This document shows, one piece after another, positions 18,807-51,118 of a stretch of DNA of 64,000 bases. The stretch comes from Methanobacteriota archaeon (lineage in GTDB: Archaea > Thermoplasmatota > E2 > DHVEG-1): contig CAVYNH010000007.1 in assembly GCA_963769885.1 (NCBI GenBank), positions 96,001 through 160,000 on the forward strand. The letters are read 5' to 3'. The notes under the pieces were generated by a model. That model made no database searches. It was not told the origin of the DNA and was given only the letters and a program-made list of their open reading frames with translations. Each line of letters starts with the position of its first letter. The stretch's first letter is position 1. Position numbers and translations under genes: made by a program.

Positions 18807-18958
18807 AGCACTCCGCGGAATATGAATCCCCTCGTCTACTAGGTACCCTCAAAGTAAAGAATCACCAAGGTACTATTTGAGCATTATTCCCCCCAATAAA
18901 TATGGGTTGAAGGCGAATCTTTTTCAGGGAGAACAGGATTGAGGACCACCGTGGAACC

Positions 18959-19837
18959 ATGCCGCTCATCGACCTCCCCGACGTCCAATCCAGCCAAGCC
19001 CCCAGCCGCTTCAAACTCACCAGAGTCGGCGTCGCCGGCGTCAGACGACAAATCCCAATCAAACGCCCAAACAAAACCACGCTCACCCAACTCAACGTCA
19101 CCATGGACCTCTTCGTCGACCTCCCTGCCACCCAAAAAGGCAGCCACATGAGCCGCAACCTCGAACTCATCGCCAAACTCATCGACACCAACATCCAAAC
19201 CCCAGTTCCCGACCTCGAAACCTTCTGCGCCAACACCGCCGCCCTCCTCCTCACCAAACACGAATACGCCACCTTCTCCGAAGTCAAAGCCCAAGCCGAA
19301 TACTTCTACGACGTCCAATACCCCTCCGGCCAACAAGGCACCGAACCCTGCACCCTCATCGCCGAGGCCCGCATGACCCGCGGCGGCAGCCTCCGCAAAC
19401 TCATCGGCGTCCGCGTCCTCGGTATGACCGCCTGCCCCTGCGCCATGGAAGTCGTCCGCACCATCAGCGACCGCACCACAGACTCCCCCGCCCCCACCCA
19501 CAACCAACGCAACATCGGCACCCTCATGATCGAAGTCCCCAGCAACCACACCCTCGTCGACGCCGACAACCTCATCACCATCGTCCAAGACTCCTTCAGC
19601 TCACCCACCTACAGCCTCCTCAAACGACGCCAAGAGGCCGAACTCGTCCTCCGCGCCCACGAGAAACCCAAGTTCGTCGAAGACGTCGTCCGCGACATGC
19701 TCAAAAAAGTCCTCGACACCTACAAGCACCTCCCCGACGAAGTCCTCGTCATCGCCTGCAGCGAAAGCGAAGAATCCATCCACAAACACAACGCCTACGC
19801 CGAACGCATCACCACCCTCGGAGAACTCCGCAAATAA
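18959..19837 (+). CDS. mptA: GTP cyclohydrolase MptA / FolE2 family
   Basis: LPDVQ, KGSHMSR, GMTACPCA, THNQR, PKFVEDVVR and ESIHKHNA. Confidence 0.93.
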   Translation: MPLIDLPDVQSSQAPSRFKLTRVGVAGVRRQIPIKRPNKTTLTQLNVTMDLFVDLPATQKGSHMSRNLELIAKLIDTNIQTPVPDLETFCANTAALLLTKHEYATFSEVKAQAEYFYDVQYPSGQQGTEPCTLIAEARMTRGGSLRKLIGVRVLGMTACPCAMEVVRTISDRTTDSPAPTHNQRNIGTLMIEVPSNHTLVDADNLITIVQDSFSSPTYSLLKRRQEAELVLRAHEKPKFVEDVVRDMLKKVLDTYKHLPDEVLVIACSESEESIHKHNAYAERITTLGELRK

Positions 19838-19913
19838 CAAAACCAGCTCCAACCCTTTTTTCTGAGATTCCCTGAAAAAAAGCTTAAAAACCCGGTTCTG
19901 GTATCCCTTTGGC

Positions 19914-21773: not shown

Positions 21774-22362
21774 TTATATAGTGCTTAAGGAGGTGGCGAT
21801 GCGGGAGAGCTTGTCTTCTGATCGGTGGAGGATCTCGTTGGCGAGATTGATAAGGAGGGAGAGGTAGTCGTTTGTACAATAGAGAATCCCGTTGTTTCCG
21901 ATAGGGGCGTCGAGGCGTTCGGTGCTGGCGATTTCGACGATGATGCGTTTTCCGAGGGAGCGGATGGCGGAGTTTTTAAACCCGGCGGCGTTGGCGGCTT
22001 TGATGAGCCGCTCTGCTCCTTGGAGGGAGTCAGCGCCGGCGTGGATGATAGGAGATTGCCCGAGGATCCAGAGGACGCCGGTCGTTGCCTTTTGAGTACC
22101 TAGTTTTCACTTCGTCCAGGGTTGTGGGCTGATGCCAGCATCCGAGGAAGTCGGCGTGTTGTTTGTCTCCAAGGCGGGGGATTTGGAGGAGGAGGATACG
22201 GCCGGCGCAGCTGCTGAGGGTGTAATAGCCAGGGAGGCTGTTGATCTGGGTGAGGATGGGGAGGATTTGGGTGTCGACGTCGCCGGTGGTGCAGGCGGTG
22301 GTGAGGGCGGCGAGGGCGCGTTCTTTGGCGTCGAGGAACTCTTTTACTTCCTGGGGCGTCAT
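21774..22362 (-). CDS. taw3: tRNA wyosine methyltransferase Taw3/Tyw3, +1 frameshift near 22100 (probable sequencing error)
   Basis: GDVD..I..IL..IN...YYTLSSCAGRI. Continues in another frame as LWILGQSPIIH...AGFKNSAI...IIVEIASTERLDAPI. Length is 3n+1. Confidence 0.85.
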
Positions 22363-22368
22363 GGCTGA

Positions 22369-23529
22369 TTACCGTCCTTGGCGGAGGGTGCGGCGGAGGT
22401 TGACGCCGCGTCTGCGCAGCTCCGTCTGCATGGGTGGGAAGGGAACGATTTCTTCTGGGCAGAAGACGCCGGGGGTGTTGATGGTGCCGTGGTGGAGGAG
22501 TTGGGCGGTGATAGAGACGGGGTAGCCTGTGGTGCGCATCATGGCGGATATCCCGTGGTGCGTGTCGCAGTAGTCGATGAGTGTATAGTCGAGCCGTGTG
22601 GGGTGTCCGTTTTTGGTTCCTTCTCCGAGGACTTTTAAAAGGACGACGTCGTCGCCTTCAGTGGGGAGGTGCTGTTTGAGAAGGGTGATGAGGACCGCTC
22701 TGGGGGCGATGGTGGCGTGGCCGATGGCAAGAGGCTTGATATCGGCGAGGCCGAGGTCGAGGAGGGTTTTTATCCTGTCGCAGTGGCCGGGGTAGCGGAT
22801 GGTCTTATAGTCGAGGTGCTGAATCCTAGTTTTGTAGGTGGTGGGGAGGATGGAGCAGCCGCCGGAGGTGAGGAAGGCTTCCATGCGGCCATAGGGTGGG
22901 GGGAAGTGGATGGGTTCCAGCTCGGTCATGGAGGGTTTGGTGAGGATGCGGCCGTGATCGAGGACGAGGGCGTCTTCGACGTATTCGTTGATGAGGCCGT
23001 CGGGGGAGAAGACGAGTTGGTAGTTGAGGGGCGGGCGGGGGTGGACCGGGAGGCCGCCGACTCTGAGTTTGACGCTAGAGACGGTGTCGAGGGTGTCGAC
23101 GATGTCGCGGGTGATGATGGAGACGAGGCCGGGGGCGAGGCCGCTGTCGGGGATGACGGTGACCTTGTGGTTGATGGCGTCGTGGTGCATGGCGCGTTCG
23201 GCGGCGACGATGTCGTTGTTGCCGCCGAGGTCGATGAAGTGGGTGGCGGTGGCGATGGCTGCTTTGGCGAGTGCGGCGTTGTGGTAGTAGGGGACGGCGG
23301 AGACGGCGATGTCGACGTTCTTGAAGGCTGAGGTGATTTGGGTGGGGCTGGCGGCGTCGAGGGTGGTGTAGTCAACGGTGGTGTCTTTGAGGAGTTTTTT
23401 GGCTTGGGTGAGGGTGTGGGGGTCTTTGTCCGCGAGGAGGATTCTGGTGAACTGGGAGTGTGTGGCGAGGTCGTAGGTGATGGCGCGGCCCATCATGCCG
23501 GCGCCGAGGACGAGGATGTCGATGGGGAT
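22369..23529 (-). CDS. saccharopine dehydrogenase family protein (probable ATC start)
   Basis: IDILVLGAGMMG Rossmann motif, DLGGN, GLAPG, VGGLP, YKTIRYPGH and MMRTTG. AAGGAG SD precedes ATC 23529. Confidence 0.88.
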   Translation of the reverse strand: MPIDILVLGAGMMGRAITYDLATHSQFTRILLADKDPHTLTQAKKLLKDTTVDYTTLDAASPTQITSAFKNVDIAVSAVPYYHNAALAKAAIATATHFIDLGGNNDIVAAERAMHHDAINHKVTVIPDSGLAPGLVSIITRDIVDTLDTVSSVKLRVGGLPVHPRPPLNYQLVFSPDGLINEYVEDALVLDHGRILTKPSMTELEPIHFPPPYGRMEAFLTSGGCSILPTTYKTRIQHLDYKTIRYPGHCDRIKTLLDLGLADIKPLAIGHATIAPRAVLITLLKQHLPTEGDDVVLLKVLGEGTKNGHPTRLDYTLIDYCDTHHGISAMMRTTGYPVSITAQLLHHGTINTPGVFCPEEIVPFPPMQTELRRRGVNLRRTLRQGR

Positions 23530-23669
23530 CGGGGCTCCTTATGGTGGTTTTTTTGCGGTGAATCGGGGTCGTGGGTTATTAAATCTGTGGAGGACAGTGG
23601 TGGAGGCGTATCAGTTTAATAGTTTGGTGTTGTTACCGGAACCGGACTCCTTTCGGGAGAGGGCGTGTC

Positions 23670-24965
23670 ATGAACTCTAGTACGCTTTGGGACCCTAAGC
23701 ATGAGGCGTTATCGTCTGAAGATTTATTGAAGTTACAGACCCAGCGGTTCAAGGCGCTGGTGGCTCGGGTGTATCAATCGAATCAGTATTATCGGAAGCG
23801 GCTGAATGATGCGAAGGTCAAGCCGACTGGGATCTCGTCTCTGAGGGATATTGGGAGGATCCCGTTGTTGACGAAGCAGGATTTGCGGACGTATTATCCG
23901 TTCGGGCTGGTGTGTACGCCGTTGGATGATATCGTGGAGGTGCATGCGTCGTCGGGGACAACGGGGAAGCCAGTCGTCGGGCCGTACACTCGGAATGACC
24001 TGGAGTTGTGGGCTGAGGTGATGGCGCGGTCGCTGTATGCGAACGGGGTGCGGAAGTCTGATGTGTTGCAGAATGCGTACGGCTATGGGTTCTTCACGGG
24101 GGCGCATGGGTTCGAGCGGGGGGCCGAGCGGATCGGGGCCATGGTCCTGACGATTGGCTCGGGGAACACGGACCGGCAGATTGACGTTCTTCGGGATTTC
24201 AAGAGCACGGTGCTGGCGTGTACCCCATCGTATGCCTTGCATATCGCGGAGGTCGCAGAGGAGAAAGGCCTTGATCCCGCGGAGGATTTCAGTCTGCGGT
24301 TGGGCGCGTTTGGGGCGGAGTCCTGGAGCGACAGTATCCGTAAGAGCGTCGAGGACCGCTGGCATATCACCGCGTGCGAACACTATGGCCTCACGGAGAT
24401 CATCGGGCCTGGCGTCGTCTCGGAGTGCTCGGAGCGTCATCTGCATATCAACGCGGATTATTTCTACCCGGAGATCATCGACCCGAACACGGGTGAGGCC
24501 CTGGAGTACGGGACTGAGGGGGAGCTGGTGTTCACGACGTTGACGAAGGAGGCGTTCCCGGCGCTTCGGTTCCGGACCCGGGACCTGGCGATGATCTCGG
24601 ATGAGACCTGTTCCTGTGGGCGGACGCTGCCGATCATGTCGCGGATTAAGGGCCGTAGCGATGATATGATGAAGGTGAAGGGCGTCATCGTGTTCCCGTC
24701 ACAGATTGAGGCCGCGCTCATGGTCACGCCGGGCGTCAGCGACAACTACCAGATCATCAAGAAGAAACAGGGCGACATGTATTCGTTGTCAGTCGAGGTG
24801 GAACCGACAGAGGAACGTTATAGAGAGGGTCACCTGGATGAGTTGGAGAAGCGGGCGGAGGCCGAGATCTACCGGATCCTGAACCTGCATGTCCCTGTTC
24901 AAGCCATTGTCCCCAAATCAATCCCGCGCAGCACCGGGAAGGCAAAAAGAGTGATAGAACGGTAG
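23670..24965 (+). CDS. paaK: phenylacetate-CoA ligase family protein
   Basis: HASSGTTGKP, YGLTEIIGPG, RFRTRD and GRSDDM. Confidence 0.92.
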   Translation: MNSSTLWDPKHEALSSEDLLKLQTQRFKALVARVYQSNQYYRKRLNDAKVKPTGISSLRDIGRIPLLTKQDLRTYYPFGLVCTPLDDIVEVHASSGTTGKPVVGPYTRNDLELWAEVMARSLYANGVRKSDVLQNAYGYGFFTGAHGFERGAERIGAMVLTIGSGNTDRQIDVLRDFKSTVLACTPSYALHIAEVAEEKGLDPAEDFSLRLGAFGAESWSDSIRKSVEDRWHITACEHYGLTEIIGPGVVSECSERHLHINADYFYPEIIDPNTGEALEYGTEGELVFTTLTKEAFPALRFRTRDLAMISDETCSCGRTLPIMSRIKGRSDDMMKVKGVIVFPSQIEAALMVTPGVSDNYQIIKKKQGDMYSLSVEVEPTEERYREGHLDELEKRAEAEIYRILNLHVPVQAIVPKSIPRSTGKAKRVIER

Positions 24966-24974
24966 CCTAGAGTG

Positions 24975-26180
24975 CTACCGTCGTTTTACTGCCAGCCACA
25001 GGATCAAGCAGATGAGTAGTGCTCCAAGGACTGCGGCTATGGGCACGATTCCTCCGGCGAATGGGAAGAGGATTGGGAAGACGACTGGGAGGACTGCTGC
25101 CCCAATATTGCTGATGGAGACGTAGAGGCTTGCTGCGATGCCGACGTTGGCCTCGGTGACCCCAGGTTCGGTCTCCTGGCTGTAGAGTGCCAGCGGCCAG
25201 GATGCCTGAAGGCAGAGTCCGAAGAAAAACGCGGCGATGAGGACAAGCAGCCAGCTCATGTCTGTTATGTGGAGGTAGTACATCAGGATCCAAAATATAA
25301 TTGCTCCAATAATCACTGAGATGGTGACTCTCTTCAGCCCGACGCGCTTCATGATGAACGGTGCGGCGAACGCTCCGATAGCACAGCCATACAGCAAGGT
25401 CCCGGCGATGTACCCTCCTGTCGCTCCGGGGTACAGGAAGTGGGTGAAGGCGGAGATGACCAGGGTGATGCCGACGACGAAGAAACCGATGAAGGGGTAG
25501 AGGTAGGCGTTGCGCTGACCGAAGACGTTACGCATGCCTTCTGCGAACTTCATCTTGACGACGGTGGGGCGTTCCTCCGGTGGCGTCGCTGGGTGGTCTT
25601 TCGCTGCGACGACCCAGAGCAGGAAGCTGATGACCGCGAGGATGCCGAAGATGAGATAGCCGGTATACCCCGGTTGTGGTTCATTGTTGATGCCGATGAG
25701 GAGAGGCATGGCAAGGGAGCCGGTACCGAACCCGATGAACAATCCAGAGGCTGCAATACCAACTGAGAGGCCTGATGACTTCGCTGGGAACCAGCGCAGC
25801 ATCTGTGGTGCCAAGGCGACGAGGATCCAGGCGAGACCGATACCGGCGATGATGCTGGTCAGCATCAGTGACTCGAAACTCGTGAGCAACCAGGGGCGGA
25901 TGCCGAAGCCGATGGCCATGAAGAGCGCGCCGATGGTAATCGAGAGCTTCGGTCCTCGTTGGTCAATGAGTCGGCCGGCGGGCCAGGCGAAGAAGACAAC
26001 GAACATCCCGATCAAGGATATGAGCAGATGTGCTTCCCAGTCGGGAACATGGAACAATCCTTCATATCGGGTCAACATAGGGGACAGGGCGAACCAGTTC
26101 GCCCCGTACGCGAAGATCACTAGCCAGAAGAGGGCGACAACCACCCATCGGTAGGAATAGACTTTTTGCTCCATACGCAC
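24975..26180 (-). CDS. MFS transporter
   Basis: About 12 TM helices, YSYRWVV start and GRLIDQRG motif A. Confidence 0.88.
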   Translation of the reverse strand: MRMEQKVYSYRWVVVALFWLVIFAYGANWFALSPMLTRYEGLFHVPDWEAHLLISLIGMFVVFFAWPAGRLIDQRGPKLSITIGALFMAIGFGIRPWLLTSFESLMLTSIIAGIGLAWILVALAPQMLRWFPAKSSGLSVGIAASGLFIGFGTGSLAMPLLIGINNEPQPGYTGYLIFGILAVISFLLWVVAAKDHPATPPEERPTVVKMKFAEGMRNVFGQRNAYLYPFIGFFVVGITLVISAFTHFLYPGATGGYIAGTLLYGCAIGAFAAPFIMKRVGLKRVTISVIIGAIIFWILMYYLHITDMSWLLVLIAAFFFGLCLQASWPLALYSQETEPGVTEANVGIAASLYVSISNIGAAVLPVVFPILFPFAGGIVPIAAVLGALLICLILWLAVKRR

Positions 26181-28316: not shown

Positions 28317-29614
28317 CCCGCCACAGCGACAACCTGGCCCTCTCCCTGCTCTACGACACCCTCCTCTTCGCGGTCATGGTCAGCCTCTCCGCCGCCGTCC
28401 TCCTCCCCGCCCTCACCGACCCACACGCCCCCCTCGCTTCACTGGAAAAACACCGCGAGCTTGACGTGGACGATACCCTCCACACCCTCCTCGCCACCCG
28501 CCTCGACAACTTCTCCTACGCCTTCCTCGGCACCATCACCGACCACGTCGCCGACACCCTCGGCATCAACACCAGCTCGCAGGGCCTCTACGCCGAACTG
28601 CGCGCCTGGACCCTCGCCAACACCCCCCGCCACGAGACCTACGCCGCCCTCATCGCCGAAGACCTCACCAGCCAGCTGCGCATCCCCACCGGACCCACCA
28701 GCAACCTCAGACTCAACATCCTCACCGAAGACTACGACACCAGCCTACAGACCGCCCTCACCCACGACCTCAACCTTCGTCTCCAAGGACGCTACCACTA
28801 CAACCTCACCGCCCGCTGGCATCCCATCACCGGCCTCGCCCTCGGCGGCGACCTTACCGTCGGCCCCCCACCACCCCACCAGACCAGCCACGTCGCCACC
28901 CGCCACATCGCCGTTCCCCTCGCCCCCGCCATCCGCATCCACAACACCACCATCACCCTCACCCACCACGCCCTCGCCCACCAGCTTGACCTCATCAACC
29001 TCAGCAGCAACACCACCATCCCCCAGATCTCCAACCTCACCACCATCCTCAACGCCTACCTCCACCACACACCTCCCTACACCACCCGCCCACCAGCCGC
29101 AGACGCCATCACCGAAAACCTCACCAGCCTCCTCGACGCCTTCCTCATCGATGGCATCCACACCACCAACACCACCATCCTCCCCGGCATCGCCAACGTC
29201 ACCCTCGACGCCCTCCTCGCCCGCCTCACACAAGCCGCGACCAACACCAGCCTCAACGATACCCTCGGCGCCCTCACCGGCACCCTCAACCACATCCTCA
29301 CCGGACTTGCCAACACCACCGCACCACTCACCTCCGGACTCCTCGCCCCCCTCACCACCAGCCTCACTCACCTCCTCAACCAGACCGCCAACCTCCCGAT
29401 TCTGCTCACGACCGCGAAAGCCTGGATCCTGAACCAGACCCGCGCCGCCGCCCACCAGCTCCTCGCCCCCGCCATCACCACTCTCACCGACACCCTCCTC
29501 GAAGCCACCGACGGCCTCCACACCCTCACATTCCTCCTCAACCAGTGGCTCCTCGACCGCCTCGCGATCCAGACCGCCACCATCACCCTCACCCTCTGGA
29601 CCACACACCCATGA
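28313..29614 (+). CDS. pilin-like protein, second gene of operon
   Basis: DNLA/LSLLYDTLLFAVMVSLSAAVL, LTVGPPPP, C-terminal TITLTLW. ATGA overlaps on both sides. Confidence 0.7.
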   Translation: MTRHSDNLALSLLYDTLLFAVMVSLSAAVLLPALTDPHAPLASLEKHRELDVDDTLHTLLATRLDNFSYAFLGTITDHVADTLGINTSSQGLYAELRAWTLANTPRHETYAALIAEDLTSQLRIPTGPTSNLRLNILTEDYDTSLQTALTHDLNLRLQGRYHYNLTARWHPITGLALGGDLTVGPPPPHQTSHVATRHIAVPLAPAIRIHNTTITLTHHALAHQLDLINLSSNTTIPQISNLTTILNAYLHHTPPYTTRPPAADAITENLTSLLDAFLIDGIHTTNTTILPGIANVTLDALLARLTQAATNTSLNDTLGALTGTLNHILTGLANTTAPLTSGLLAPLTTSLTHLLNQTANLPILLTTAKAWILNQTRAAAHQLLAPAITTLTDTLLEATDGLHTLTFLLNQWLLDRLAIQTATITLTLWTTHP

Positions 29615-32319
29615 CCCTGAGAACCGACACCACCGCCCGCATCCCCTTCGCCATCCTCGGCATCTTCCTGCTCCTCGCCAGCAGCACCGCCTCCCTCCTC
29701 CTCATCCACCACCACACCCAGACCATCCCCCCCGCCGCCACCATCCTCGACCTCAACGCGATCACTAGACTCCGCCAGACCGCCGAAGCCGACCTCGCCA
29801 CCGCCCTCAACCGCATCGCCACCCAAGCCCTCACCCGCATCGGCCGCACCCCCGTCACCCACCCCCTCAAGGGCACCGCAGACACGGTCCTCTACGACCG
29901 CCTTCGCCACGCCATCCTCCCCAACCTCACCCAATACCTCCTCGCCCAGTACACCGACGACACCCACACCGACGGCACCTACGCCCTCAACATCCCCCTC
30001 ACCAACGACACCCCCACCCTCACCCCCGACCAGATCACCGTCACCACCCACCCCCTCACCCTCCACCGCACCACCATCCCCTACCTCGGACCACCGCCCA
30101 CAACCACCTCCCCCGCCTACCTCACCGCCACCCTCCCTCTCACCTTCATCCTCACCATCCACCACCACCCAACAAACCACACCGAACACGCCACCATCAC
30201 CACCCTCATCACCAGCCGTTACCCCCTCCTCGACCGCCTCACCACCGACTACCAAACCAGCCTCAGTGCCACCCCCGGCCCCCTCTGGACCTTCACGACC
30301 ACCACCGCCATCCTCTACACCCAACTCCGCGCCTGGAAACACCACCCCGCAGGAAACCCCGCAAACATCGTCGACAACCACCACCTCGCCCTCCTCCTCA
30401 ACGCCGGCCTCCAACTCACCACTGCCCTCACCTACCACAGCACCGACCCCCTCGCCCTCCTCAGCCTCCTCAGCCACACCAAAACCACCCTCGCCCAACC
30501 CGACCCCACCCCCCTCCAAGCCTTCAACCAACAAACCACCCCTACCGGCGCCACCTACCCCACCACCACCATCACCCACGACACCGCCAACCTAGACGCC
30601 GGCGACCCCACCAACACCACCATCCCCACCGGACCACCCCTCACCCTCACCGACATCGCCGACCCCATCCTCCACACCACCACCGCCCTCACCCTCCACT
30701 ACCACCGCCCACCCCACGACACCACCACCGACACCATCCCCTACGACACCCACACCGCACAGCATATCACCGACTCCCTCACCACCCACCACGCCCAAGG
30801 CTGGACCCTCACCACCATCACCAAAACACAGACAAACAACCAAACCACCGCCGCCGCTCTCCAAACCCTCGCCGCCACCATCTACCGCGACCAGATGCAC
30901 CTCCTCGTCGCCCGCCGCACCCAGATCGCCTACCACACCAACCCACCCGGCCCCCCCTGGCACGACGGCCCCCTCGGCCCCTGGACCCCCGCCCGCCTCC
31001 TCCCCGGCCCCAAACACATCACTATTCCCCCCAAAGGCACCGTCACCCCTGGCGCCGCTCTCGCCGACGAACACTACACCGTCACCTACCACCGCACCCA
31101 CAGCTACTGGAACACCACCGGCAACACCACCCAATGGGACAACCGCACCGACACCCTCACCGAAAACATCACCCTCACCACCATCCTCGACTGGACTAGC
31201 CTTATAACCAATACCCATGACGACATCACCGACATCCTCTACCACAACACCACCCTCGCCGACCCCAACCTCCACGACACCCTTACTACCTACCAAACCA
31301 CGCACCCCGACAGCCAATCAGAAAAACAACACCTCATCACCACCCGCAACAACACCGGCACCACCAGCCTCACCACCACCATCAACGGCACCATCCCCCC
31401 TTGGGTCATCCCAGAAACCTGGCACGCCCTCAACGACATCCTCTACACCCTCCAAACCCTCACCACCAACTGCAACGCCACCACCTACCCTTACCCCCCG
31501 ACCCTCATCGACCATGCAATCACAGACCTCACCACGCAACTCACCGACCATCTTCAAGAAATCCTCAACTACCGCCACTACCACCCTGGAACAGCCTACC
31601 TCAGCGTCGGTAAAAAAACCGTGTACTACGCCCGCGTCTGGTTCCTCGCCACCCTCAACGCCACCCTCAGCCAAACGCGCACCATCCTCCAAGAAAAACT
31701 CAACGACGCCATCACCAACGCCATCCCCACGACAAGCAACTACACTGCTGCCACCATCAACGACGCCCTCACCAACACCACCGACGCCCTCAAAGAAAAA
31801 TTCACGATCCCCTTCGCCACACCCATGAGCCTCACCAACACCCAGCAACCCGCATGGAACGAACCCATCCTTCTCGCCATCGACCAAACCCCCGACTACC
31901 TCAACCCCTACCAACCCATCAGATCAGGGACCGAAGAGACCTGGACCCTAAAACTACGCAACCGCTGCGTCTTTGGTCTTACCGGGCTACCGATCCTGCC
32001 CCCTTCGCCCGTCACCCCCTGGCTGCTCACCATGAACGCATGGATCATCGACGTCGAAGGGGAGTTCCTGAAACTCGAAATCATCGACGCTGATAACGAA
32101 GCCGCCTTCAACCCCCTTATCGGCCACTCCCCCCAAGCCTACATCAGGGAAGCACGTATCATTACCGATGGGACCACAATTCTCGGAGAAAACACGCGCG
32201 TCTCCTTCCATTTCACCACCCTAAGTCTCGCTGCAGTCCCACCCTTCGGCATGATGTGCGGTGACCTACAGCCAAATTGGGCAGACGACGCAACCCCAGG
32301 GTTTCTCGATATCTCATGA
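29611..32319 (+). CDS. large pilin-like/surface protein (ARIPFA N-terminus)
   Basis: DTTA/RIPFAILGIFLLLASS, and C-terminal QTPDYL...L.LRN...P..PVTPWLLTMNAW..DV.GEF...AVPP. Confidence 0.72.
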   Translation: MTLRTDTTARIPFAILGIFLLLASSTASLLLIHHHTQTIPPAATILDLNAITRLRQTAEADLATALNRIATQALTRIGRTPVTHPLKGTADTVLYDRLRHAILPNLTQYLLAQYTDDTHTDGTYALNIPLTNDTPTLTPDQITVTTHPLTLHRTTIPYLGPPPTTTSPAYLTATLPLTFILTIHHHPTNHTEHATITTLITSRYPLLDRLTTDYQTSLSATPGPLWTFTTTTAILYTQLRAWKHHPAGNPANIVDNHHLALLLNAGLQLTTALTYHSTDPLALLSLLSHTKTTLAQPDPTPLQAFNQQTTPTGATYPTTTITHDTANLDAGDPTNTTIPTGPPLTLTDIADPILHTTTALTLHYHRPPHDTTTDTIPYDTHTAQHITDSLTTHHAQGWTLTTITKTQTNNQTTAAALQTLAATIYRDQMHLLVARRTQIAYHTNPPGPPWHDGPLGPWTPARLLPGPKHITIPPKGTVTPGAALADEHYTVTYHRTHSYWNTTGNTTQWDNRTDTLTENITLTTILDWTSLITNTHDDITDILYHNTTLADPNLHDTLTTYQTTHPDSQSEKQHLITTRNNTGTTSLTTTINGTIPPWVIPETWHALNDILYTLQTLTTNCNATTYPYPPTLIDHAITDLTTQLTDHLQEILNYRHYHPGTAYLSVGKKTVYYARVWFLATLNATLSQTRTILQEKLNDAITNAIPTTSNYTAATINDALTNTTDALKEKFTIPFATPMSLTNTQQPAWNEPILLAIDQTPDYLNPYQPIRSGTEETWTLKLRNRCVFGLTGLPILPPSPVTPWLLTMNAWIIDVEGEFLKLEIIDADNEAAFNPLIGHSPQAYIREARIITDGTTILGENTRVSFHFTTLSLAAVPPFGMMCGDLQPNWADDATPGFLDIS

Positions 32320-32955: not shown

Positions 32956-34335
32956 TTATCGAAAAGAGGAGAGGAACGCGCGAAGGAAGGAAGAATCATT
33001 CCTGCGCAGTGTCGATGATAAAAGCCGAATGCCATATTGAGGCCGGAGATAATACGCAAACTGGGCAGCTTGACAGCGTTGCACCAATTGTTTCTCGGTG
33101 AGCAGCGAGAGGCCGCGGTTCGAATCCGCAATGACGATGTACTCGTCCTCCGAGATTTTCCCCTCCTTTCGAGCCTCATCCCACAGCTCGGATCCTACCA
33201 TATACCGCAAAGGAAGAAAAGAAACAGAGTCAAACGGTAGTTTTTTCGCGAACCGTAGCGTCTCACGCATCTGCCCCACGGTTTCAGCTGGTGCTCCGAA
33301 GATGAACGATCCAATAGTGATGAAGCCCATTTCATGGCTGAGCCGTATGGTCGCCTCGATTTGTTCGACGGTGGTCTGTTTATGGTAGAAATCAAGGATT
33401 TCCTGGCAGCCAGATTCGCAGCCGAACTGGACGGACACCACTCCGGCCCGCTTCATCTTCCGGTAAAGAACCGGGTCAGCGAGATCCACTCGTGCTGCAG
33501 TTACGATGAATTTAAGGTCAAGGTTCTCCTTTAATATTGCGTCGAACAGGGCATGGGCGCGGGGAAGCGGTGGCGGGAAGCAGTCGTCCATGATCGCGAC
33601 AATACGATACCCTGCTGTCTGGATGGCATGGAGCTCTCGTATGATGCTGGGAATGAAGTGGGGGCGGTAGCGGCGGGCGCTCAGCGACGTCCGTGAACAG
33701 AATCGACAGGAATAGGGGCAGCCTCGGCTGGTGATCAGGGAGGTGAGCTCCCCGGCTTTGATTCGAGGATCATAGAAACGTCCATAGGTGTAATGGCGCA
33801 CGAGGTCTCGTGCGGGAAACGGGAGGGTCTCAAGATCGTTGCAGGGACGAGCTGAAGGCCCGGCTTGGATGCCGTTTCGAGTTCGTGTCCATAGTCCGGG
33901 AATGGGGGCAGTTGTTGTTCCGAGGATGAGTCCTCTAAGTCTGCGGATGGGTTCTTCTCCGTCGCCTTGGACGCAGGACCGTGCCGGGGCCGCCGTCAGA
34001 GTTTTTTCGGGGAAGAGGGTGGCATGAGGCCCGCCGAGCACAATGGGCAAAGAGGGATCGATACTGTGGATGGTTTGTACTATTTCAGAAATATGAGAAA
34101 GAGCGGGGGTGAGCGTCGTCATGCCGACAAGATCTGCATTAGTAATGGATCGGGCGAGGGCTTCTGCGGTGTAGGGTTCCGCAGTGAAGTCGATGACGCG
34201 GACGGTGTCGCCTGCTTCTCGCAGAATGCTGGCGAGGTAGAGAAGGCCGAGGGGCGGGGCGAGTCCTCCGCTGGTGCTTTTGCCCTGATGGATGAAGAAG
34301 GGGATGAGGCGGGGATAGAGTAGGACGACGTTGAT
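32956..34335 (-). CDS. cobalamin-binding radical SAM protein (probable ATC start)
   Basis: 71 extra in-frame codons upstream of the track ATG give (M)NVVLLYP...APPLGLLYLASILREAGDTVRVIDF. Also GGPHAT and SRGCPYSCRFC. Confidence 0.9.
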   Translation of the reverse strand: MNVVLLYPRLIPFFIHQGKSTSGGLAPPLGLLYLASILREAGDTVRVIDFTAEPYTAEALARSITNADLVGMTTLTPALSHISEIVQTIHSIDPSLPIVLGGPHATLFPEKTLTAAPARSCVQGDGEEPIRRLRGLILGTTTAPIPGLWTRTRNGIQAGPSARPCNDLETLPFPARDLVRHYTYGRFYDPRIKAGELTSLITSRGCPYSCRFCSRTSLSARRYRPHFIPSIIRELHAIQTAGYRIVAIMDDCFPPPLPRAHALFDAILKENLDLKFIVTAARVDLADPVLYRKMKRAGVVSVQFGCESGCQEILDFYHKQTTVEQIEATIRLSHEMGFITIGSFIFGAPAETVGQMRETLRFAKKLPFDSVSFLPLRYMVGSELWDEARKEGKISEDEYIVIADSNRGLSLLTEKQLVQRCQAAQFAYYLRPQYGIRLLSSTLRRNDSSFLRAFLSSFR

Positions 34336-34404
34336 GGCTGAGCCGCTCCTTGTTGAAGGAGGATGCAGAAGGTGCTTGATATATTATTTGCGTAATGTTT
34401 TTTC

Positions 34405-49308: not shown

Positions 49309-50079
49309 TTAAGCTTCACTTCGGTTGAACAGGTAGCTGCCCACAGCCCACAGTACGATACACATCAAGATGATTATTCCAAGATCAAAATATGGTGAAA
49401 ACAAATTGTTAGCTCCGGTCAAGGCACCTCGGGTCCCATCGACCATGTAAAATAACGGGTTGAACAAGGTAATCGTCTGCAACCATCCCGGCCAGTCGTG
49501 ACTAATGGGGAAGAACGCCGACGAGAGGAAGAACAGCGGTAAGAGAATGAGGTTCGAGATCACCTGGAACCCTTCGTAATCCTTGATGACGGAGGCGGTG
49601 ATTAACCCCATGCCAACGGCAGCAAAGGTCAACAGGACCATGATGAGAACCGTTAACGCAAGGTTCGCTAGCCCTGGGACGACGGCGCCCATAAACAGGG
49701 CTATTCCTAGGATGACGAATCCTTGGACCAACGCGAGCGTCGCCCCGCCGAATGTTCGCCCGAGAATGATCGAAAACCGGCTCACGGGCGCAACGAGGAC
49801 TTCCTGCAAGAACCCGAACTGCCGATCCCAGAGCACGGAAACACCAGTAAAGATCGAGGACATCATAATCGCCATCGCGATGATCCCCGGCGCCAGGAAA
49901 TTGAGAAAATTGGTCTCGATACTCGGGAAGACAGCACTCCCAAGCCCAAGACCGAGGATGACAAGGAGGAAGAGGGGCTGCACGATGGTGCCGATGATTC
50001 GACTTGGCGCTCGGATGAACCGCTTCATCTGCCGCAGCCACAACACGTAGATGGCTTGCAACTCCCGATAGATATTCAC
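49309..50079 (-). CDS. ABC-2 type permease (DrrB-like)
   Basis: FLAPGII, DRQFGFLQEVLVAP and NPLFYMVD. Confidence 0.9.
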   Translation of the reverse strand: MNIYRELQAIYVLWLRQMKRFIRAPSRIIGTIVQPLFLLVILGLGLGSAVFPSIETNFLNFLAPGIIAMAIMMSSIFTGVSVLWDRQFGFLQEVLVAPVSRFSIILGRTFGGATLALVQGFVILGIALFMGAVVPGLANLALTVLIMVLLTFAAVGMGLITASVIKDYEGFQVISNLILLPLFFLSSAFFPISHDWPGWLQTITLFNPLFYMVDGTRGALTGANNLFSPYFDLGIIILMCIVLWAVGSYLFNRSEA

Positions 50080-51065
50080 GGGTTCCCCCCTGCATTCTTC
50101 TGGTTGATCTTCAATTCGTCCTCAGGTTCTTGGTCTCGAATGCTCCTGCCAGTGTAATAGAGGAACACGTCATCCAACGTGGGTTTTCGAATCGTAATGG
50201 AACGAACAGCGATCTGTGCCTTACGGGCAAGCTCGATGATCTCGGGGATTTTTTCATCCCCGCGGCTGGCCCCAAAGGTCAATTTCTCGTGATCGATTTT
50301 TGGATTCTGCACCCAAGGCTCTTTCGCGAGCCGTGCTTGAAGCCCGGGGAGATCAGAGCAGGTCAGCGTGATGACATCGCCGCCCACTGAAGCCTTCAGG
50401 GCATCGACGGTATCTAAGATGAGAATTTTACCATGGTCGATGATGCCGATGCGGTCGCAGAGGAAATCCGCCTCGTCCATGTAATGGGTCGTCAGGAAGA
50501 TTGTCGTGCGTTCCTCTTTGTTCATCTTCCGGACATAGTCCCAGATCGCTCGTCGTGTTTGAGCATCCAGGCCGAGGGTCGGCTCATCAAGAAAGAGGAT
50601 GGTCGGCGAGTGCATCAACCCGCGGGCGATCTCCAACCGACGTTTCATCCCGCCAGAGTAGTTTTTCACGAGCACGTCCTTTTTTTCGATGAGATCGACG
50701 AGAGTGAGCACCTCGTGAATCCTGCGGATTCGGTTCTCTTTTTGCAGCCCGTAGATGCGGGCATGGAAATCGAGGTTCTCCTCCCCGGTCAGTTGTGTCT
50801 CAAGGGCGGGTTCTTGGAAGACGACGCCGATAATCTGTCGAACCGCGTCTCGTTGGCGGCGGACGTCGAAACCGCAGATCAGCGCCTTCCCAGATGTAGG
50901 GCGTTGGAGGGTCGTCAACATCTTTATCGTAGTGGTCTTCCCGGCGCCGTTTGGCCCTAAAAAGCCGAAGATTTCACCTTCATGGACCGAAAACGAAATA
51001 CGGTTGACGGCGGTGAATCCGTTGAAGGACTTGGTGAGGTCTGTCGTCGTGATGATGTCGGGGAT
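50076..51065 (-). CDS. ABC transporter ATP-binding protein (DrrA-like; probable ATC start)
   Basis: 48 in-frame codons upstream of the track ATG carry Walker A (GFLGPNGAGKTT). Also YSGGMKRR, LDEPT and PTLDDVF. Confidence 0.92.
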   Translation of the reverse strand: MPDIITTTDLTKSFNGFTAVNRISFSVHEGEIFGFLGPNGAGKTTTIKMLTTLQRPTSGKALICGFDVRRQRDAVRQIIGVVFQEPALETQLTGEENLDFHARIYGLQKENRIRRIHEVLTLVDLIEKKDVLVKNYSGGMKRRLEIARGLMHSPTILFLDEPTLGLDAQTRRAIWDYVRKMNKEERTTIFLTTHYMDEADFLCDRIGIIDHGKILILDTVDALKASVGGDVITLTCSDLPGLQARLAKEPWVQNPKIDHEKLTFGASRGDEKIPEIIELARKAQIAVRSITIRKPTLDDVFLYYTGRSIRDQEPEDELKINQKNAGGNP

Positions 51066-51118
51066 GGCTGGCGCCTCCGATTGTCTGGAGGGAGAGAATG
51101 TCTACCCCATTAAAAAGC

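Follow-up and report, generated by a model that had tools for sequence, protein, structure and literature searches.

A probable AUC start codon in an archaeal gene of the saccharopine/L-lysine-6-dehydrogenase family

The dehydrogenase gene and its start region

The window, by which we mean the whole stretch of 64,000 nucleotides that was analysed, carries on its minus strand a coding sequence of the saccharopine/L-lysine-6-dehydrogenase family (Table 1). Both domains expected of the family are recognized in its translation: an N-terminal NAD(P)-binding Rossmann domain, in which the GxGxxG motif takes the form G-A-G-M-M-G, matches PF03435 (Sacchrp_dh_NADP) with 65.8 bits (cut-off 25.1), profile positions 1-129 falling on read-through residues 8-129, while the C-terminal part matches PF16653 (Sacchrp_dh_C) with 147.4 bits over profile positions 1-265. 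The best match in the PDB is 3ABI_A (PH1688), with an E-value of 4.4e-33 over residues 2-377; its N-terminus, K-V-L-I-L-G-A-G, aligns from residue 2 of the query. PH1688 of Pyrococcus horikoshii, known as an L-lysine 6-dehydrogenase, has the same two-domain architecture and an N-terminus of the M-K-V-L-I-L-G-A-G type, but it is only a distant homolog with an ordinary start, and the activity of the window enzyme on lysine is a prediction. Homologs number in the thousands; uncultured Thermoplasmata-type archaea are the source of most, and 'lysine 6-dehydrogenase' is a frequent JGI label among them. Our preferred explanation is that the gene encodes a functional NAD(P)-dependent dehydrogenase of this family.

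Table 1. Features of the dehydrogenase locus, and other genes and loci considered (positions are those of the window unless a genome and contig are named)
Feature	Location	Strand	Remarks
Saccharopine/L-lysine-6-dehydrogenase-family CDS	22369..23523	minus	from ATC to stop at 22371-22369; 384 codons
First canonical start, ATG	23494..23496	minus	within the G-A-G-M-M-G dinucleotide-binding motif
Proposed start codon, ATC (AUC)	23521..23523	minus	proposed from ortholog Met1 alignment, ATC conservation and SD spacing
Alternative upstream in-frame ATC	23527..23529	minus	first choice of the earlier note; ATC here in window and L001 only
Shine-Dalgarno (SD) motif AAGGAG	23535..23540	minus	read from the sequence
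In-frame upstream stop, TAA	23539..23541	minus	closes the frame on its 5' side; overlaps the SD
Putative archaeal TATA box, TTTAATAA	23576..23583	minus	60 nt upstream of ATC 23523; predicted from sequence
B12-binding radical SAM gene	32959-34383	minus	B12 domain from residue 37; first canonical start at codon 87
ABC ATPase gene	50079-51101	minus	ABC_tran from residue 33; first canonical start at codon 60
Initiator tRNA	G000 C6:132516-132591	minus	outside the window; loop C-C-CAU-A-A (CCCAUAA), C33 instead of the near-universal U33
Three candidates, one of them the glutaredoxin-like ORF with no canonical start	G000 C7:181441-181789; C5 ORF 88052-88943 (strand-relative coordinates); C7 ORF 262557-263337	plus; minus; minus	
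G008 genes with ATA start	C1, first 1.9 Mb: 'g8 - 1282904-1283807' and 'g8 + 656365-657301' (stitched coordinates)	minus; plus	10-34 conserved codons before the first canonical start

The minus strand from 23541 to 23494 reads TAA GGA GCC CCG ATC CCC ATC GAC ATC CTC GTC CTC GGC GCC GGC ATG, exactly as quoted in the earlier note on this DNA. Between the TAA and the GxGxxG motif there is no in-frame ATG, GTG or TTG; there are instead three in-frame ATC codons, at 23529-23527, 23523-23521 and 23517-23515, and the AAGGAG lies 5 nt before the first and 11 nt before the second of them. An ORF listing based on canonical starts gives a product of 375 aa from ATG 23496. In the read-through translation from the upstream stop, GAPIPIDILVLGAGMMGR, this first methionine falls inside G-A-G-M-M-G, and position 1 of the PF03435 profile, at residue 8, lies upstream of it; a start at ATG 23496 would cost the dinucleotide fold its strand beta-1 and two of its glycines. 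Reading of the sequence finds no SD before this ATG.

No ATG, GTG or TTG occurs in any of the frames from the TATA-like box (23583) down to 23523, so that the frame could not be entered by frameshifting from a canonical start further upstream either. The position of the putative TATA box implies a leadered mRNA, with a predicted leader of roughly 25-30 nt, and TTTATAT(G) is found at the equivalent place in two of the relatives described below, L002 and L136, 54-57 nt upstream of the ATC. Folding of the leader RNA indicates no special structure (z = +0.6), and the leader of the same-genus genome G001 is likewise unremarkable.

Two neighbours frame the gene. On the plus strand, an AMP-ligase gene (23670-24965) diverges from it. 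Just downstream, on the minus strand, the TYW3 (tRNA wybutosine) gene (21774-22362) differs by a 1-nt insertion at about 22100 from the 98%-identical copy in L001; the insertion splits the gene into two overlapping ORFs, and is either a real pseudogenizing change or a single-base assembly error.

Comparative evidence on the position of the start

The earlier note had proposed that translation begins at an AUC codon preceding the first ATG, at 23529 or 23523, and had suggested an alignment of ortholog starts as a check. In this alignment the codon corresponding to ATC 23523 is ATG in 15 relatives of the same genus, family and order, a same-genus genome included. The N-terminus of database orthologs (55-70% identity) is M-[D/N/K]-[V/I]-L-V-L-G-A-G-M-M-G, with Met1 opposite the Ile of ATC 23523. 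P0001 and P0002, the nearest proteins in the databases, are called at 375 aa, that is, from the internal ATG.

At the same column ATC is present in four independent assemblies, at protein identities of 66-92%: the window, L001 (SRR29366204), L002/L003 (ENA/JGI) and L136 (ERR575695). The start region of L001 reads TAA GGA GCC CTG ATC CCC ATC GAC ATC, and that of L002/L003 AGG AGT CTG AGC CCT ATC GAC ATC ATC GTC ATC GGC GCC GGC ATG; in the latter the nearest in-frame stop is 29 codons upstream, with no canonical start between, and so in L001 and L002, as in the window, no canonical start precedes the N-terminal domain. L136 has ATC GAC ATC at the aligned column and an in-frame ATG five codons upstream of the ATC, and this lineage may therefore initiate elsewhere. 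The recurrence of the same ATC in L001, L002/L003 and L136 indicates that the pattern is not due to chance. Pattern scans of metagenome and genome contigs for the C-rich N-terminal DNA, with the third base of the first codon left free, yielded nothing beyond the L003 contig already known.

Where coding constraint begins can be judged from the same sequences. The nine codons between the ATC and the first ATG are conserved as protein (IDILVLGAG, IDIIVIGAG, IDITILGAG), while the DNA just upstream of the ATC diverges and differs in length by 1 nt between the window and L002: together these observations place the onset of constraint at, or very near, 23523. All four ATC-bearing lineages keep an unbroken reading frame of 384 codons, and the dN/dS ratios (Nei-Gojobori) are 0.22 for the window and L002 (dS 0.81), 0.26 for the window and L001, and 0.24 for L001 and L002. 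The gene has thus been maintained since its acquisition of the ATC.

The spacing of the SD agrees with this position. Confident ATG starts of the genome are enriched in G at -14 to -8, and the offset of GGAG from these starts (about 170 counts) is mostly between -17 and -9, with a maximum at -15/-14 (20 and 21 counts), 8 counts at -9 and none at -21. In the window GGAG is at -15 from 23523, at -9 from 23529 and at -21 from 23517, and the equivalent motifs of the relatives are AGGAG in L002 (GGAG at -14) and GGAG in L136 (-13). An SD 5-mer of this kind is present at 18% of the confident ATG starts.

Taken together, ortholog alignment, recurrence in four assemblies, purifying selection and SD spacing bear out initiation at an AUC ahead of the first ATG, and we consider it quite probable that AUC 23523 is the real start, read under the direction of the SD by the initiator Met-tRNA after mutation of an ancestral ATG to ATC. 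As for the pair of positions left open by the earlier note, 23523 is the one that is conserved and aligned to Met1, whereas 23529, two codons further 5' and with a product that would begin Met-Pro-Ile-Asp-..., corresponds to AGC in L002 and to AGA in L136, the ATC equivalent to 23523 alone being common to all four lineages. The AAGGAG immediately ahead of 23529, at an offset that some ATG starts do use, speaks for this codon; its offset is less common than that of 23523 by only about 2.5-fold, and conservation is a stronger discriminator between the two positions than spacing. A further point on its side is the codon directly before ATC 23523, which is CCC, CCC, CCT and CCA in the four lineages, i.e. 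a proline retained with synonymous variation; this could hint at initiation further upstream, or could simply reflect a preferred C-rich context at -3/-2. On balance a start at 23529, or the use of both ATCs, seems to us rather unlikely.

The explanations that dispense with AUC initiation altogether fare worse. The earlier note had named two findings as decisive against its proposal, namely that the codon is really ATG or that the gene is a pseudogene, and neither was obtained. A misread base at 23521 (G instead of C, restoring ATG) could be imagined in view of the single-base indel difference in the nearby TYW3 gene, but the change at the start codon is a substitution and not an indel, and the presence of the same ATC in four assemblies from different projects excludes a sequencing error; we regard this reading as effectively refuted. 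That the gene is dead, or yields only the truncated protein from ATG 23496, would accord with the choice of this ATG by gene callers, and the frameshifted TYW3 in the assembly makes local decay conceivable. Against it stand dN/dS values of 0.22-0.26 at dS of up to 0.8 between ATC-bearing lineages, which rule out a pseudogene, as well as the uninterrupted frame in all of them, the protein-level conservation of the nine codons ahead of the ATG, and the missing SD before the latter; this explanation is therefore highly improbable.

Strand composition, the initiator tRNA and other unusual starts

The replacement of ATG by ATC occurred against an unusual compositional background. Cytosine occupies the third codon position in 290 of 385 codons in the window gene, 295 of 385 in L001, 305 of 384 in L136, 208 of 385 in L002 and 169 of 385 in the ATG-bearing G001, and in far fewer codons in the other relatives; only 31 codons ending in G are left in the window gene, 8 of them ATG. 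In the divergent AMP-ligase gene it is G that prevails at third positions of the coding strand (219 G vs 110 C), from which it follows that the bias is a property of the DNA strand within this patch and not of codon selection. The ATG to ATC change is a G-to-C change, in the same direction as the strand bias. The region 22369-26180 forms a patch of strand-specific composition, and patches with skews of ±0.4-0.6 alternate along the window.

In the gene tree L136 groups with the Met-bearing protein P0004, and G001 is sister to (L002,(window,L001)), with moderate support values of 81-90. This topology implies that ATG changed to ATC twice independently, each time in an extremely C-enriched copy; a single gain of ATC with later reversions could also account for it.

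We propose the following sequence of events at AUC 23523. An ancestral ATG would have been turned into ATC by the strong C-enriching bias, and translation would still begin at the same place: the AAGGAG would pair with the 3' end of the 16S rRNA and set the AUC in the P site, where the ordinary initiator Met-tRNA (anticodon CAU) would accept it with a mismatch at the third base. The protein would then begin Met-Asp-Ile-Leu-Val-Leu-Gly-Ala-Gly, with Met presumably inserted at the AUC, and its expression would be expected to be low. The change may have been tolerated because of the strong SD and of the lack of a competing start in the leader.

Since the initiator tRNA would be the reader of such a codon, its gene was also considered. 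The genome carries three CAU tRNAs, and the initiator-type one among them has A1:U72 and three G:C pairs in the anticodon stem. Its C33 is shared by 26 of 26 sampled genomes of the order, and U33 is found in 4 genomes from other orders of the class (loci L106-L135). Loss of t6A is known to raise non-AUG initiation in yeast. Elsewhere C33 is the typical state in initiator tRNAs of multicellular eukaryotes, and for the t6A37-forming enzymes of E. coli and yeast it acts as an anti-determinant (PMC8887486). The dehydrogenase gene retains its ATG in relatives that also have C33, so that C33 is not the cause of the ATG to ATC change and is at most permissive; that it is permissive for AUH starts is speculation. 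The acceptor stem is also unusual: G000 (the genome of the window) and G001 have A-GAAGGG as its 5' strand, and seven other genera A-UAAGGG, against an unchanged CCCCGCU on the 3' side, and the encoded stem thus has mismatches at 2:71, 3:70 and 4:69 (the G000 locus of Table 1, and L107, L109, L116-L120 and L122), most relatives having a normal A-GCGGGG. A search of the 92%-complete G000 for a Thg1-like 3'-5' polymerase, which might have explained these mismatches, found none.

Two more genes of the window, encoding a B12-binding radical SAM protein and an ABC ATPase, have Pfam domains that begin 50 and 27 codons, respectively, before the first ATG, GTG or TTG, and hence need a non-canonical start. 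In both an AAGGAG or GGAGG (GGAG at -14 and -13) precedes 'GCC ATC' by 9-10 nt, in the same layout of SD, 9-11 nt and ATC as in the dehydrogenase gene. The presence of a strong SD in 3/3 of the window genes with a candidate ATC start suggests compensation for a weak codon. The window also contains, on the plus strand, a C-rich ORF of 310 codons (18943-19875) without any ATG, GTG or TTG and without a Pfam match, and a DUF7286 ORF of 1109 codons (28990-32319) whose first canonical start is at codon 185.

Beyond the window, a comparison with 740 kb of G001 (about 181 evaluable ortholog pairs) left the dehydrogenase as the only convincing case. A census against the more distant, AT-rich relative G008, which covered 1.9 Mb (82% of G008) and 622 reciprocal-best pairs and combined a strict filter with manual inspection, gave two solid cases in G000, the dehydrogenase and a glutaredoxin-like ORF without any canonical start, and one or two possible ones. 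The other members of the candidate set that includes the glutaredoxin-like ORF are a membrane protein whose 30-36 conserved residues are preceded by no canonical start in either G000 or G008, and a protein in which conserved residues DDGxWEC lie ahead of the first Met. In G008 itself two solid ATA starts were recognized, aligned to the start codon of their G000 orthologs and placed behind AGGAGG or GAGGTG.

Less selective approaches were uninformative or gave a negative result. When genes were picked simply because their alignment reached beyond the first canonical start on its 5' side, about 29% were flagged in both genomes, whether the comparison was with G001 or with G008, and this criterion was rejected as yielding artefacts: their sources were conserved promoter or UTR DNA, antisense or alternative-frame ORFs, and over-extension by BLAST, and anchored, stricter filters with inspection were used in its place. 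An expectation-maximization model of start sites that allowed all 61 codons assigned only 24% to ATG, CCN and other C-rich codons absorbing noise, as the non-coding model is poor for a C-rich genome. Genome-wide, the frequency of ATC after SD motifs was 1.41% vs a baseline of 1.14%, a difference that is not significant, in a scan whose filter left out cases with an ATG within 10 codons, such as the dehydrogenase gene. With starts of this type in about 0.3-0.6% of genes (622 ortholog pairs), their third base following genome composition, and with ATC unenriched after SD motifs, a genome-wide relaxation of start selection is only weakly supported.

These observations bear on the remaining alternative, in which initiation takes another route: an initiator tRNA, modified or specialised, with a mitochondrion-like reading of AUH; a change of AUC to AUG by RNA editing; or a start at a codon that is not near-cognate. 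The C33 of the order's initiator and the ATA starts of the AT-rich relative, which suggest tolerance specifically at the third base, are in its favour, but C33 is common to relatives with ATG at this gene and cannot explain the change there, the search of the genome found only the three CAU tRNAs and one GAU tRNA-Ile of ordinary elongator form, and an editing system is neither indicated nor known to us. We consider routes of this kind improbable. A broader proposal would be that the order systematically tolerates AUH starts in roughly 0.3-1% of genes, always behind a strong SD, with the third base drifting with composition (ATC or ATT in a C-rich genome, ATA in the AT-rich relative), by way of an altered fidelity of initiation and possibly of the C33 initiator. 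We advance it tentatively, as an idea that is at present doubtful.

Relation to known near-cognate starts

These results can be viewed in the light of what is known of near-cognate initiation. NCBI table 11 lists ATC, ATT, ATA and CTG as permitted starts, and E. coli infC and pcnB start at AUU. The dehydrogenase gene resembles these two in that its proposed start is one base off AUG, follows an SD and is kept among relatives, the initiator Met-tRNA being its presumed reader. It differs from infC, in which the AUU is part of an autoregulatory loop with IF3 discriminating against its own start: here the product, a dehydrogenase by its Pfam domains and its match to 3ABI, is a metabolic enzyme and does not govern start-codon discrimination, the codon is AUC, initiation is of the archaeal aIF1/aIF2 type, and the change tracks a local mutation bias. 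In vertebrate mitochondria AUA, AUU and AUC serve for initiation by a tRNA-Met with a modified C34, within a changed code; the likeness is in the relaxation of the third base at Ile-type codons, ATC in the window and ATA in G008, but mitochondria have a known tRNA modification and a changed code, whereas AUH starts here are found in less than 1% of genes.

With respect to AUC itself, a weak start codon where it has been measured, initiation in E. coli was about 1-3% of that at AUG, with N-terminal Met, in a synthetic reporter (Hecht et al., 10.1101/063800): this shows that an AUC behind an SD can initiate, in a bacterial and synthetic setting unlike the natural archaeal gene of the window. Ribosome profiling of H. 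volcanii detected near-cognate sites, which were alternative or putative and were excluded from the analysis (PMC7261190); these are also archaeal, but in the window the conserved enzyme has no other possible start than the ATC. We conclude that the ATC of the dehydrogenase gene is, on comparative grounds, a well-supported natural example of a rare near-cognate start, an exception of a known kind and not a new mechanism.

There is a practical side to this conclusion. Standard gene callers truncate the window enzyme, as well as its closest public homologs P0001 and P0002, at the internal ATG. With beta-1 and part of the cofactor motif lost in this way, annotations, and expression constructs built on them, would be wrong. 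To our knowledge the fidelity of start-codon selection in archaea has been little studied, and archaeal data on AUC starts are scarce. The dehydrogenase gene offers a comparatively anchored case in which the only possible start is AUC, kept through substantial divergence, and is as such a natural substrate for tests of start fidelity. A further lesson is that a start codon may be eroded under an extreme local mutation bias, with 75-79% C at third positions, without the gene being killed, the strong SD apparently acting as a buffer.
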